This document shows, piece after piece, positions 49,901-54,722 of a DNA stretch of 64,000 nucleotides. Each line of letters opens with the position of its first letter. Positions within the stretch are counted from its first letter, which is position 1. The stretch spans positions 4,321-68,320 of the forward strand of contig JAMWCW010000003.1 in the NCBI GenBank assembly GCA_023819145.1, read 5' to 3'. Under the pieces are notes generated by a model. It was given only the letters and a program-made list of their open reading frames with translations, was not told the DNA's origin and searched no databases. Position numbers and translations under genes: made by a program. The DNA is from Candidatus Omnitrophota bacterium (lineage in GTDB: Bacteria; Omnitrophota; Gorgyraeia; DTHP01).

Positions 49901-52177
49901 ATGGAATATCCTGAGCCAAAACTGAGCGAAAATGCACTGAAGGTTTTAGAGAAGCGCTATCTCTCAAAGAACGAGGAAGGCAAGGTTGTGGAAACGCCGC
50001 GTGAAATGTTTATCCGTGTGGCTAAATATATTGCCTCGGCAGATAGATTGTATGGGAAATCTATAGAAGATACGGATAATCTCTCCGCAAAATTTTATGA
50101 AGTAATGGCTGAAGGTGAATTTATGCCCAATTCTCCCACTTTGATGAATGCTGGAAAGGAGCTTGGGCAACTTTCTGCCTGTTTTGTGCTTCCTGTAGAA
50201 GATTCTATGGAGAGTATTTTTGGAGCAGTGAAGTCAACGGCTTTAATCCACAAGACAGGCGGAGGCACGGGTTTTGATTTCTCAAAACTCCGTCCGAAGA
50301 ATAGTCCGGTGAGGACAACCGGAGGAGTTTCTTCAGGGCCTGTTTCTTTTATGAAAGTATTTAATGCTGCTACGCAGGCGATTAAGCAGGGTGGAACACG
50401 TCGGGGAGCAAATATGGGAATTTTAAGAGTTGACCATCCGGATATTTTGGAGTTTATTACCTGTAAACAGGAAGATAAAGAAATTACCAACTTTAACATC
50501 TCCATTGCGCTCACCGAAGATTTTATGGATAAAGTAAAGAATAGTGAAGAGTATGATTTGGTTGACCCGCGTACCGGCAAAATGGTAAAGAAACTTCCGG
50601 CGCGCGAGGTCTTTGAGCTGATTGTTAAACAGGCCTGGAAAAATGGTGAACCAGGAATCATTTTTATTGACAGAATGAACAAAGACAATCCCACTCCCCA
50701 TTTAGGAAAGATTGAATCAACAAATCCCTGCGGAGAACAGCCCCTTCTTCCTTACGAAAGTTGCAATTTAGGAAGCATCAATTTAGCAAAGATGCTGAGG
50801 TTGGGTGAGGGGAAAACTGAAGTTGACTGGGAAAAATTACGTACCGTTGCCCATGTGGCGGTACATTTTTTGGATAATGTCATTGATATGAATAGATTTC
50901 CTTTACAGGAGATTGAAGAGCGGACAAAACTTACCCGAAAAATTGGTTTAGGAGTGATGGGTTGGGCAGACATGCTTGTAGAATTGGGAATTCCCTATAA
51001 TTCGGAAGAAGCCCTTACTCTTGCAGATAAAATAATGGGTTTTGTTTTAGAGGAAGCGGAGCATAAATCGCAGCAATTGGCAGAGGAGCGGGGGGTGTTT
51101 CCTGCTTTTGAGGGGAGTAGAATTGCCCAACAGGGAAAAAGATTACGTAACGCCACGCTTACTACCATCGCCCCTACAGGAACTATCAGTATCATCGCAG
51201 GAGCCTCAAGTGGGATAGAACCACTTTTTGCCCTCGCCTACACCAGGCACGTTATGGATAATGATAAATTGGTAGAAATAAATCCTTATTTTGAAAAAGT
51301 CGCCCGCGAAAAAGGTTTTTATTCCCGAGAACTAATGGAAAAAATTGCGGAAAAAGGTTCTTGTCAGGATATACCGGAGATTCCCGATGATGTGAGGAAG
51401 GTTTTTGTTACTGCTCACGATATTTCTCCCGAGTGGCATATCCGCATGCAGGCAGTATTTCAAAAATACACGCATAATGCAGTTTCTAAGACGGTAAATT
51501 TCCCTCATCAGGCCACAGTTGAGGATGTTAAAAAAGTTTATCTTCTGGCATATCAATTAGGATGTAAAGGAGTAACTATTTATCGCGATAAAAGTAGAGA
51601 GGAACAGGTTTTAAATATCGCTTCTTCAAAATCGGAAAAACAGGGAAATTCTAAAGAACAAGAAGAACGTTTTACCCCTCGCCCCCGTCCGGAGGTAATG
51701 CGTGGAAGCACTACCAAGATTAATACCGGTTGCGGCAATCTTTACATTACCATCAACGAAGATGAAGAAAAACATCCTTTTGAGGTATTTATGCAGATGG
51801 GAAAAGCAGGAGGTTGTGCTGCTTCGCAACTGGAGGCGATTGGGAGATTGGTTTCTCTGGCACTTCGTTCGGGAATAGACCCGGTACCAATTATTGAACA
51901 GTTAAGGGGAATCAGGTGTCCCTCTCCTTCTTGGGAGAGTGGAGGAACACGTATCTTCTCTTGCGGAGATGCTATTGCCCGAGTTTTGGAACGGCGATTG
52001 GCACAGATGAAAAAATCTTCTCCAGAGATAAAAGTGAAAGTTCTTCATTCCGTTGAAGAAAATAATGTTTATTCGAGAAGGGTTAATATTGTGGGTGTTT
52101 GTCCTGACTGCGGCGAGCCACTAAAGCACGAAGAGGGTTGTGCCAAATGTGAAGCCTGTGGATATGCAAAGTGCTAA
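49901..52177 (+). CDS. nrdJ: adenosylcobalamin-dependent ribonucleoside-diphosphate reductase (class II)
   Basis: 758 aa; NPCGEQPL active-site region, C-terminal Cys-rich zinc finger CPDCGEPLKHEEGCAKCEACGY. Confidence 0.9.
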   Translation: MEYPEPKLSENALKVLEKRYLSKNEEGKVVETPREMFIRVAKYIASADRLYGKSIEDTDNLSAKFYEVMAEGEFMPNSPTLMNAGKELGQLSACFVLPVEDSMESIFGAVKSTALIHKTGGGTGFDFSKLRPKNSPVRTTGGVSSGPVSFMKVFNAATQAIKQGGTRRGANMGILRVDHPDILEFITCKQEDKEITNFNISIALTEDFMDKVKNSEEYDLVDPRTGKMVKKLPAREVFELIVKQAWKNGEPGIIFIDRMNKDNPTPHLGKIESTNPCGEQPLLPYESCNLGSINLAKMLRLGEGKTEVDWEKLRTVAHVAVHFLDNVIDMNRFPLQEIEERTKLTRKIGLGVMGWADMLVELGIPYNSEEALTLADKIMGFVLEEAEHKSQQLAEERGVFPAFEGSRIAQQGKRLRNATLTTIAPTGTISIIAGASSGIEPLFALAYTRHVMDNDKLVEINPYFEKVAREKGFYSRELMEKIAEKGSCQDIPEIPDDVRKVFVTAHDISPEWHIRMQAVFQKYTHNAVSKTVNFPHQATVEDVKKVYLLAYQLGCKGVTIYRDKSREEQVLNIASSKSEKQGNSKEQEERFTPRPRPEVMRGSTTKINTGCGNLYITINEDEEKHPFEVFMQMGKAGGCAASQLEAIGRLVSLALRSGIDPVPIIEQLRGIRCPSPSWESGGTRIFSCGDAIARVLERRLAQMKKSSPEIKVKVLHSVEENNVYSRRVNIVGVCPDCGEPLKHEEGCAKCEACGYAKC

Positions 52178-52278
52178 AGTTTCGTTAATAAGCGAAACAT
52201 AACCCCAGAGGAAGGGGAGAGATATTTTTTTATTTTTGGTTCTTTTGGTCTTTTAAAAAATTTTTATTAACCCCCCCC

Positions 52279-52307
52279 TTGACAATTTAGGAAAAGTATG
52301 CTATAAT
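52279..52307 (+). promoter_or_regulatory. sigma70-like promoter driving structured leader and small-ORF cassette
   Basis: TTGACA (52279-52284), 17-nt spacer, TATAAT (52302-52307). Confidence 0.5.
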
Positions 52308-52314
52308 TAGCTTG

Positions 52315-52440
52315 GAAGTTTTAAAAAGGGAGCCGGCCTAAGAGTAATTCCGGTGCAAGGTAGCCGGGGTATTATACGGTTATCCCGGCGAAGGAGATAG
52401 ATGTGCAGAGAAACAAGTTTAACCAAAAAGGAGGTGTAAG
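52315..52440 (+). promoter_or_regulatory. GC-rich structured 5' leader (two CCGG-based hairpins), candidate cis-regulatory RNA
   Basis: GCCGG...CCGGU and GCCGGG...CCCGGC stems read from sequence; RBS AAAGGAGG before ATG 52441; no family assigned. Confidence 0.3.
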
Positions 52441-52641
52441 ATGAAGAAGGGAATTTTGATTTTGGCGGTGATTTTGGTAACGAGTTTGATGGTTGGTTCA
52501 GTCCACGGTGTCACCCCTAATAATGATAAGAAAGAAATTGGTGTTCTGCCACCATATGATCCAAAGGCAATAGAAAGAGGATTAGATAGTATTAGGAATA
52601 AACAACTTTTCAACTTTATCTTGATTCACCAGATAATATAA
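52441..52641 (+). CDS. small secreted protein (signal peptide), hypothetical; possibly 5' part of a frameshifted gene
   Basis: 66 aa; MKKGILILAVILVTSLMVGSVHG signal-like N-terminus; downstream ORF frame open from 52602 and overlaps this ORF's end. Confidence 0.4.
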   Translation: MKKGILILAVILVTSLMVGSVHGVTPNNDKKEIGVLPPYDPKAIERGLDSIRNKQLFNFILIHQII

Positions 52642-52673
52642 CAAGAGTATTAGAATTATTAGCATTATTTAAG

Positions 52674-52741
52674 GAAAAATTTGTGCCACCGAATCAAAAA
52701 CAAGCTTATTTCTATTTAAATCATTTAGAGGAGCCCCCAAC
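52674..52741 (+). repeat. 68-nt exact direct repeat, copy 1
   Basis: gaaaaatttgtgccaccgaatcaaaaacaagcttatttctatttaaatcatttagaggagcccccaac; identical copy 147 nt downstream. Confidence 0.9.
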
Positions 52742-53330
52742 AGATTACAAAATATATGAAAAACTGGAGCAGAAATCACTACTGACAGAACAATTTATAC
52801 AAGAACTAATAAAAGCGTTTGAAAAATTTGTGCCACCGAATCAAAAACAAGCTTATTTCTATTTAAATCATTTAGAGGAGCCCCCAACTAAAGCCGATGT
52901 TCTAGATTTTTTAAAAGGTTTAGGAGGATTTGATCAAGCCAGTGAGTCGGCAATCAAAAGTTTTATAGCAGACTTAGAGAATGGTAAGGTAGTACTGGGA
53001 GATGTTATACTTACTGGCCATCTTGATCGCCCAGACACAACCGCCGGCGGTGATTTTACCGGGAGTTTTCCCGTATCGACCCTCACTTTGACCATTAATG
53101 TGAGTCCAGTTGGGCTCGATGTTCCCGGTGGCAAACTTGAGATAACATTCGGTAGCCACGGAATGGATGGAAAAATTTCCGAGGGAGTATATGGTCTTTT
53201 GGCATCGGCTCCTAAAGGGCAAATATGGGTTTCTCCTGTATTATTAGCTCTTGTAGGGGAAGGGATAAAGAGTGCACAAGATTCTCGTCGCGCTACCTAT
53301 ACCACGGTACCAATGGGAACAAACGAATAG
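52683..53330 (+). CDS. hypothetical protein with tandem duplicated N-terminal segment (VPPNQKQAYFYLNHLEEPP x2)
   Basis: 215 aa, GTG start; internal 147-nt period with 68 nt identical; C-terminal half Gly/Thr-rich and GC-richer; followed by terminator. Confidence 0.45.
   Translation: MPPNQKQAYFYLNHLEEPPTDYKIYEKLEQKSLLTEQFIQELIKAFEKFVPPNQKQAYFYLNHLEEPPTKADVLDFLKGLGGFDQASESAIKSFIADLENGKVVLGDVILTGHLDRPDTTAGGDFTGSFPVSTLTLTINVSPVGLDVPGGKLEITFGSHGMDGKISEGVYGLLASAPKGQIWVSPVLLALVGEGIKSAQDSRRATYTTVPMGTNE
52821..52888 (+). repeat. 68-nt exact direct repeat, copy 2
   Basis: Identical to 52674..52741 by direct reading; in-frame (147 nt = 49 codons) within the same ORF. Confidence 0.9.
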
Positions 53331-53357
53331 TATTTTACCTTAACTAATTTCCCATCG

Positions 53358-53398
53358 ACCCCCGGAATTTATTTAGCGCAGGTTCCGGGGGTTTTTTA
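53358..53398 (+). terminator. intrinsic terminator closing the 52.3-53.3 kb cassette
   Basis: ACCCCCGGAA ... TTCCGGGGGT stem followed by TTTTTTA. Confidence 0.8.
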
Positions 53399-53399
53399 T

Positions 53400-53428
53400 T
53401 TGCCAACTTCTCTTTTATTTGGTATAAT
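53400..53428 (+). promoter_or_regulatory. sigma70-like promoter upstream of apgM
   Basis: TTGCCA (53400-53405), 17-nt spacer, TATAAT (53423-53428). Confidence 0.45.
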
Positions 53429-53450
53429 ATTTTCATAAAATAATCTAAGG

Positions 53451-54722
53451 ATGAGAAAGATTCTTTACATTGTTTTAGATGGTTTAGGCGACCGGCCACA
53501 TCCAAATTTTGGGGACCAGACTCCTTTGGAGTCAGCAGCTATTCCTTACCTTAATCGGCTGGTAGAAGCAGGGCAGTCAGGTTTGGTTTATACGGTGGGG
53601 AAGAACATTGCTCCTGAATCTGATGTGGCGGTAATTAGTATATTGGGTTATGATGCGCATAAATATTATACCGGTCGTGGTCCCTTAGAGTGTTTTGCCG
53701 AAGGTTTAAAAGTAAAGGATGGAGATTTGGCTTATCGCGTCAATTTTGCGACACTGGGGGAGAAAAGAGAGATAATTGACCGGCGAGTAGGGAGAAACCT
53801 TACTACTCCGGAAGCTACTCTTTTGGCAAAAGAGATAAATGAAAAAGTAAAACTCAGGGAAGCCGAGTTTGTTTTCAAAAATACCATTGGGCACCGCGGG
53901 GTACTACTTATCCGCTCTAAAAAAGGGAAATTGTCCGCCAAAGTTACCAACACTGACCCCGCCTATGGTAAAGAAGGAGTTTTTGGGGTTGCAAAAGAAG
54001 AATTTGAGAACTTTGTACAGAAATGCCTTCCCGAAGATTCTACCCAAGAGGCAAAATTAGCAGCAGAACTTACTAATGAGTTTATGGAGAAAAGTCAGGA
54101 GGTTCTTGCTAAATCAGAGATAAATAGGAAGAGAGTAAAGGAAAATAAGCTACCTGCCAATGTAATTTTAACCCGGGATGCTGGAGATAAACTGCCAAAA
54201 TTTCCCTCCCTAAAAGAGAAATTTGGGATAAATTTTGGTTGTTTTGTGGAGATGCCTGTAGAGAAGGGAATTGCTTTGCTTACGGGAATGGAGATTATAG
54301 ATTTGCCTCTTCCTACTGGAGATCTAAAGAACGATTATACTCTACGTGCTTCTCGGACTTTAGAAGCGATTAATAAATTTGATGGCCTCTATATCCATCT
54401 CAAGGGTCCCGATGAACCCGCCCATGATGGGAATTTTCTTAAGAAGAAGGAAATCATTGAAGCGATAGATCGATTTTTCTTTGGAAGGCTATTAACCTCC
54501 CTTGAACTTAAGGATTGTGTTATCGCGGTTACTGCTGACCATTCCACGCCCTGTATCCTTAAAGCGCATTCCGCTGACCCCGTACCGCTAGTTATCTCAG
54601 GTGGAAATATCCCAAGCGATGAAGTAAAGTTGTTTTCAGAGAATCAGGCTCGAAACGGAGCATTGGGAGAGTTGGAGGGAAGGGAGGTTCTTTCCAAGAT
54701 TATAGAGTTTGCTTCTCGTTAA
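53451..54722 (+). CDS. apgM: 2,3-bisphosphoglycerate-independent phosphoglycerate mutase, archaeal type
   Basis: 423 aa; LYIVLDGLGDRP N-terminus and C-terminal ADHSTP metal-binding motif. Confidence 0.85.
   Translation: MRKILYIVLDGLGDRPHPNFGDQTPLESAAIPYLNRLVEAGQSGLVYTVGKNIAPESDVAVISILGYDAHKYYTGRGPLECFAEGLKVKDGDLAYRVNFATLGEKREIIDRRVGRNLTTPEATLLAKEINEKVKLREAEFVFKNTIGHRGVLLIRSKKGKLSAKVTNTDPAYGKEGVFGVAKEEFENFVQKCLPEDSTQEAKLAAELTNEFMEKSQEVLAKSEINRKRVKENKLPANVILTRDAGDKLPKFPSLKEKFGINFGCFVEMPVEKGIALLTGMEIIDLPLPTGDLKNDYTLRASRTLEAINKFDGLYIHLKGPDEPAHDGNFLKKKEIIEAIDRFFFGRLLTSLELKDCVIAVTADHSTPCILKAHSADPVPLVISGGNIPSDEVKLFSENQARNGALGELEGREVLSKIIEFASR

Follow-up and report, generated by a model that had tools for sequence, protein, structure and literature searches.

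Within the 64-kb window analysed here (the whole stretch of DNA, to whose numbering all positions refer), two overlapping reading frames lie on the same strand between a class II ribonucleotide reductase (RNR) gene and apgM. The first, ORF1, opens with a signal-peptide-like segment, and the frame of the second, ORF2, contains two identical copies of a 68-nt sequence (Table 1). This arrangement raises the question of whether the locus holds one secreted-protein gene that has been broken, two genes, or a gene that is switched, and of how the repeat came about. We favour, with moderate confidence, a single gene for a secreted protein that grew at its N-terminal end and was split by a 1-nt indel, either a real mutation or an error of assembly or consensus.

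Table 1. Features of the RNR-apgM interval, numbered as in the window; L055 is the orthologous locus described in the text.
Feature	Position	Strand	Remarks
Lineage-restricted cassette, 1.27 kb	52178..53399	+	Follows the RNR stop codon and precedes the apgM promoter
Sigma-70-type promoter	52279..52307	+	TTGACA, 17-nt spacer, TATAAT, TG before the -10; 12/12 consensus matches
Predicted 5' UTR, ~127 nt	52314..52440	+	GGAGG Shine-Dalgarno at 52430-52434; read from sequence
ORF1, 66 aa	52441..52641	+	Signal-peptide-like N-terminus MKKGILILAVILVTSLMVGSVHG, then ~30 coding-like residues and a 13-codon tail of non-coding appearance
Frame-switch zone, candidate 1-nt indel site	52600..52641	+	ORF2 frame opens at 52602; ORF1 stop at 52639-52641; codon-usage switch
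ORF2-frame extension upstream of the GTG, TTFQLYLDSPDNITRVLELLALFKEKF	52602..52682	+	Putatively coding; codon score 3.51
Repeat copy 1	52674..52741	+	Read as derived, within the N-terminal expansion; flanks without counterpart in L055
ORF2, 215 aa, GTG start	52683..53330	+	NCBI NC818_02410, hypothetical protein; -1 frame relative to ORF1
Unique spacer, 79 nt	52742..52820	+	Encodes DYKIYEKLEQKSLLTEQFIQELIKAF; 3' part aligns where the mature L055 protein begins
Repeat copy 2	52821..52888	+	Context read as ancestral: ...EEPPT/KADVLDF aligns with L055 ...KQPVT/AADVLEF
Terminator-like hairpin	53359..53397	+	CCCCCGGAA, 15-nt loop, TTCCGGGGG, then T6; conserved with L055
apgM promoter	53400-53428		Promoter scan and sequence reading

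The RNR-apgM interval and its cargo

The gap between the two flanking genes measures 1273 nt in the window. Upstream lies the class II RNR gene (49901-52177, 758 aa), and downstream lies apgM, which encodes a 2,3-bisphosphoglycerate-independent phosphoglycerate mutase of 423 aa; a homologue of the DUF4912-family proteins is also among the neighbouring genes. RNR homologues of related loci contain the Ribonuc_red_lgN, Ribonuc_red_lgC and TSCPD domains.

One genome per species was scanned for relatives of apgM, and RNR was then sought in the same loci. The two genes are adjacent across Omnitrophota and neighbouring lineages, and 17 of the 23 related loci that carry both have a spacer of 5-122 nt. 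Among the closest relatives, the spacer is 103 nt in L004 (apgM ~82% and RNR 84% identical), 98 nt in L003 and 103 nt in the Logan contigs L057 and L059. Set against the 1273 nt found here, these short spacers indicate that the cassette is lineage-restricted.

In this clade the RNR-apgM junction is a variable slot with differing cargo. It holds a dCTP deaminase-like gene in L005 and L008 and an amino-acid permease fused to an EIIA domain in L015. In L061 and L062 it is occupied by ~3.5 kb of small genes, with a Sigma70_r4 protein, weak NTP_transf_5/DUF6036, DUF5678 and a weak match to a PHD-like, RelE/RelB-type antitoxin family. The changing cargo across relatives resembles that of variable genomic slots known between other core genes, but the cassette borders yielded neither an integrase nor an att-like flanking repeat nor a tRNA gene here.

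Two further observations concern the flanking genes of the relatives. Upstream of apgM, L060 has a HEPN gene and L054 another gene. The RNR of several relatives contains one or two inteins, as judged by Pfam matches to Intein_splicing and LAGLIDADG_3; intein-related RNR loci are L055:1-2909, L056:1-2754 and L061:1-451, and split RNR matches occur in L007, L009, L010 and L012, the split tblastn matches breaking at residue 277 with gaps of ~1.1-1.2 kb. The RNR of the window has no intein.

The cassette promoter is conserved in L055 at the -35 hexamer and in the sequence preceding that hexamer. The predicted leader folded no better than shuffled sequences (z = -0.42), and no Rfam riboswitch was found at E ≤ 10 in 52290-52450 or at E ≤ 1 in 51800-53800. 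In L055 the leader is similar in length and differs in its middle, with only the segment next to the ribosome-binding site conserved. By eye, part of the leader (CCGGCCUAA...CCGG...GGUAGC) resembles the second hairpin of a c-di-GMP-I (GEMM-I) riboswitch, a candidate that we rejected given the absence of an Rfam match and of a folding signal and the unconserved middle of the leader. The leader also contains a 9-bp GC-rich hairpin (52363-52389). At the other end of the cassette, the terminator-like hairpin was read from the sequence, the terminator scan having missed it since its loop exceeds 8 nt.

Reading frames and the orthologous gene

A cassette of ~1.1 kb occupies the same RNR-apgM position in L055 (GCA_037442605.1), whose apgM is 79% identical to that of the window. 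Four blocks of the two cassettes align: the promoter (CTTTTTAAAAATTTTT...CCCACCCTTGACAA...TATACT), the surroundings of the ribosome-binding site and start codon (TTTAACCAAAA...GTAAGATGAAG), the terminator and the apgM promoter. This alignment at the same place identifies the L055 cassette as an orthologue. The preliminary description of this locus had suggested looking for a single fused ORF in orthologues, and L055 provides one: a 202-aa ORF (3209-3817) that joins a putative signal peptide and the mature domain and is free of any internal repeat. Its N-terminus, MKAKAMLGVIVALVVGLVVSSAYG, aligns with the hydrophobic, signal-peptide-like N-terminus of ORF1, and its residues 40-97 are 36% identical to the ORF2 product over 58 aa (INLPKQPVTAADVLEF...FITNLEKGRVALSDV against LNHLEEPPTKADVLDF...FIADLENGKVVLGDV; E = 2e-5 in a single comparison). 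Aligned globally, the orthologues share ~35% identity, while the flanking apgM genes share 79%.

Set against the basic n-region, hydrophobic h-region and small-residue cleavage motif that characterise Sec signal peptides, the N-terminus of ORF1 consists of MKK, GILILAVILVTSLMVGS and VHG. Its 15-residue hydropathy peak is 2.5, as against 2.9 for L055, and it gives a weak NCBIfam signal-anchor match (E = 0.033). ORF2 alone has no hydrophobic N-terminus.

The frame of ORF2 is stop-free from 52602, just after a TAA at 52599-52601, and overlaps the last 13 codons of ORF1. One added base, or a -1 shift, anywhere within 52602-52638 would fuse the two frames. The preliminary description was thus accurate on both the extent of the open frame and the single-nucleotide indel that could join a signal peptide to the larger protein. 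A stop-free stretch of 27 codons occurs by chance in 9% of off-frame windows of this sequence, and 12% are expected from base composition; taken alone, the open stretch upstream of the start is weak evidence.

Codon usage was scored in fixed segments and sliding windows with a log-likelihood model trained on the long ORFs of the window. The 27 codons between 52602 and 52682 scored 3.51 in the ORF2 frame, close to true coding windows (4.05 ± 2.74); stop-free off-frame windows (n = 104) averaged -5.16 ± 3.51, and only 1% of them reach 3.51. Within the overlap, the 13 codons of the ORF2 frame (52602-52640) scored 1.52, in the top 3.7% of off-frame windows, and the 13 tail codons of the ORF1 frame (52600-52638) scored -1.11, which is typical of off-frame sequence and falls in the lowest 7% of coding windows. 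The preceding part of ORF1 (52441-52599) scored as coding. In this test of 13-27 codons, the coding signal therefore leaves the ORF1 frame for that of ORF2 at ~52600, the start of the overlap and well upstream of the GTG. The indel probably sits near the 5' end of the 52600-52641 zone.

The switch in codon usage and the L055 ORF together support the earlier suggestion of one secreted protein disrupted by a frameshift. They also bear on the proposal of two genuine operon genes, in which ORF1 would encode a 66-aa secreted peptide, ORF2 an independent cytoplasmic 215-aa protein translated from the GTG at 52683, and the open overlap would be coincidental. That GTG is preceded at 7 nt by a plausible Shine-Dalgarno-like AAGGA, NCBI annotates the 215-aa protein as a stand-alone gene, and the chance frequency of the 27-codon open stretch, given above, is in keeping with coincidence. 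However, the codons before the GTG look coding in the ORF2 frame while the end of ORF1 does not, and the repeat begins 9 nt upstream of the GTG, so that the duplicated peptide (EKF..) opens before the supposed start codon. Moreover, the orthologous domain is made in one ORF with the putative signal peptide attached, and a domain that is presumably secreted in the orthologue would here stay cytoplasmic. We consider two separate genes unlikely.

The 68-nt repeat and its history

A repeat search returned a 68-nt family of two copies at 100% identity, 147 nt apart start to start, confirming in every coordinate the exact, in-frame repeat noted in the preliminary description. Self-BLASTN of the region against the whole window found no third copy. 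An exact 68-mer cannot recur by chance within 64 kb. The two copies specify the same peptide, EKFVPPNQKQAYFYLNHLEEPPT, in the ORF2 frame; its final Thr codon is ACA in copy 1 and ACT in copy 2. The 147-nt period corresponds to 49 codons, a multiple of three, and the loss or gain of a copy would preserve the frame.

The repeat is not a simple in-frame tandem duplication. Such a duplication, if recent, would have yielded two identical units of 147 nt, whereas the copies agree over just 68 of the 147 nt, a shared length that is not divisible by three, and the identity breaks off sharply at both repeat ends. The 79-nt flanks on either side of the copies showed no similarity beyond that of shuffled sequences (nucleotide p = 0.83 and 0.39; protein p = 0.50), and a decayed tandem duplication with a homogenised core, though possible, gains no support from these flanks, which show no residual similarity. 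Tandem Repeats Finder reported no 147-nt array, its output being one AT-rich 9-nt match of 2.4 copies at 52648-52669. A bare 68-nt insertion would shift the frame, yet both copies and the stop-free spacer between them lie in one frame. The absence of any difference over 68 nt in a fast-evolving gene nevertheless points to a very recent event or to ongoing homogenisation. Of the earlier proposal of a very recent in-frame duplication, the recency is thus supported and the simple tandem origin is not.

Comparison with L055 suggests which copy is the older. There the putative signal peptide is followed almost directly by a segment that matches the tail of the spacer, copy 2 and the downstream domain. 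On this comparison copy 2 keeps the ancestral setting, and copy 1 falls within ~95 additional codons (roughly 52510-52793) that have no equivalent in L055. Copy 1 would accordingly be derived, a polarity that rests on two taxa, of which the sole orthologue is very divergent. The repeat-bearing segment 52683-52888 has atypical codon usage (score 2.19 over 68 codons, in the lowest 3.4% of coding windows) and a GC content of ~32%, as against ~46% in the C-terminal half of the gene. Both properties are consistent with a different or recent origin of the N-terminal expansion. Most likely, copying or gene conversion placed the repeat as a patch in an N-terminal region that had expanded beforehand; alternatively, the entire expansion may have arrived with a copy of the segment in it.

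Two other schemes were examined. The adenine-biased differences between variable and template repeats that mark a diversity-generating retroelement are absent, the copies being 100% identical. Deleting one 68-nt copy would bring the downstream sequence into the ORF1 frame, but ORF1-frame stops at 52639 and 52651 precede copy 1, and we rejected such a deletion as a repair of the ORF1 frame.

Could the duplication be an artefact of assembly, from misjoined or gap-filled contig ends or from a chimera of strains? A genuine scaffolding artefact is present in L056, a second assembly of the L055 species, in which identical 55-nt ends surround 100 Ns (3182-3391) inside the orthologous gene and truncate the gene call to 109 aa; users of that record should treat it with caution. 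This gene region thus tends to break assemblies, and the artefact resembles the present case as a short exact direct repeat in the same gene family. Unlike L056, however, the window has no Ns, and its copies are parted by 79 nt of unique, coding-like, in-frame sequence, the 3' part of which aligns with the L055 protein. In addition, 68 is not a usual k-mer length of assemblers, and repeat plus spacer span 215 nt, which lies within the reach of paired short reads. We regard an artefactual repeat as very doubtful.

Identical intragenic repeats are known from surface and secreted proteins such as the alpha C/Rib family of group B streptococci. The present repeat is similar in that nucleotide-identical, in-frame segments lie in a protein with a putative signal peptide, where recombination can change length, but it differs in having only two copies that are not head to tail and share 68 nt of each 147-nt period. 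In a more far-reaching proposal, the protein could be an effector of host or prey interaction under strong diversifying selection in an Omnitrophota lineage, with its 68-nt copies gene-converted and allowing reversible 147-nt length changes, and with the frame break an ON/OFF polymorphism of the population, not decay. We give this proposal only a slim chance.

The proposed frame break and the encoded protein

The preliminary description had also raised the possibility of a switchable gene, which found no support. Programmed -1 ribosomal frameshifting is known from dnaX and IS3-family transposases, and phase-variable contingency tracts typically comprise 7 or more units; under either mechanism some translations, or some cells, would here yield the fused secreted protein. 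The frame geometry demands exactly a -1 shift or a +1-nt change, the downstream ORF overlaps the end of the upstream one in the -1 frame as in the programmed systems, and U UUC at 52608-52611 could in principle permit single-tRNA -1 slippage. Regulated recoding or switching is nonetheless extremely unlikely, because the 42-nt overlap contains no X XXY YYZ heptamer in the ORF1 frame (codons AAT AAA CAA CTT TTC AAC TTT ATC TTG ATT CAC CAG ATA ATA TAA), the frame-switch region (52597-52641) has no homopolymer or short-repeat tract beyond A3, T4 and T3, and the downstream RNA (52590-52720) shows no stimulatory hairpin or pseudoknot of the kind expected 5-9 nt past a slippery site (MFE -13.3 kcal/mol, z = -0.25 against shuffles). 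Nor is the two-frame arrangement conserved, the L055 gene requiring no frameshift. The evidence thus supports neither programmed frameshifting nor phase variation at a homopolymer.

On the favoured reading, the broken state is ordinary gene decay or an assembly slip, and not a new mechanism. It matches the frameshift-split genes and young pseudogenes of bacterial genomes and MAGs, in which adjacent same-strand ORFs with overlapping frames jointly match one ORF of an orthologue and the coding signal switches frame at the overlap; it differs in that the sole orthologue is very distant. The remainder of the window consists of tightly packed, long intact ORFs, so indel errors are not widespread in it; a single consensus error is a possible source of the frame break. 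Exact-protein look-ups have ORF1, ORF2 and apgM not on record, and the collections queried thus offer no independent assembly of the organism for comparison.

Taken together, we propose one gene for a small, fast-evolving, putatively secreted protein, carried on a self-contained promoter-to-terminator cassette in the variable slot between the class II RNR gene and apgM of this Omnitrophota MAG. The ancestral gene would have had a Sec-type signal peptide directly before the mature domain, as in L055. In this genome ~95 codons would have been added between the two, bringing with them, through a copy or gene-conversion patch, the second and still identical 68-nt copy. The loss of one base within 52600-52641 would then have separated the frame of the signal peptide (ORF1) from that of the rest (ORF2). 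As assembled, the gene would be broken, as either a young pseudogene or the product of a consensus or assembly indel. Recombination or slippage between the two 68-nt copies could delete 147 nt in frame.

In a protein search ORF2 was recovered as NC818_02410, annotated as hypothetical and carried on a 144-kb contig of a Candidatus Omnitrophica MAG. Neither ORF1 nor ORF2 scored above cut-off against Pfam or NCBIfam, and the L055 protein has no Pfam match. Queries of 5.8 billion cluster representatives, first with the fused sequence and next with an alignment of the two members, retrieved only the protein itself; an exhaustive HMMER search of 1.84 billion representatives added only weak blade-repeat matches, and JGI metagenome contigs, IMG/VR viral contigs and phage genomes contained no relatives. 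By these searches the protein is an orphan, in a family of two known members.

The blade matches concern residues 118-203 of the ORF2-frame protein (window 52950-53210), which align weakly, at 28-32% identity, with ~1.5 units of a blade-like repeat; the E-value of 3.9e-10 overstates the match, since the target contributes 7 matching stretches. This repeat of ~55 aa ('EFQVNTYT...SDGKFVVTW.S.GQDG..GIYGQ') occurs in many copies in P0002-P0005, in the N-terminal, non-kinase portions of large receptor-kinase-like proteins, and matches no Pfam model at gathering score. The similarity is consistent with an extracellular beta-rich domain and is a lead, not a family assignment. A single-sequence AlphaFold model was poor (mean pLDDT 55.6), and Foldseek with that model returned nothing from the PDB at E ≤ 0.001.

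The value of these results is mainly one of annotation: the two NCBI-style ORFs are probably best regarded as a single secreted-protein gene, disrupted or mis-assembled. Its product defines a two-member orphan family in the variable RNR-apgM slot of Omnitrophota. Should reads reveal a mixture of frames, or a length polymorphism of 147 nt, the locus would be a modest case of a secreted protein that varies within a population of an uncultured lineage. Were it to encode an effector with an ON/OFF polymorphism, this uncultured phylum would have a simple system for varying a secreted protein.
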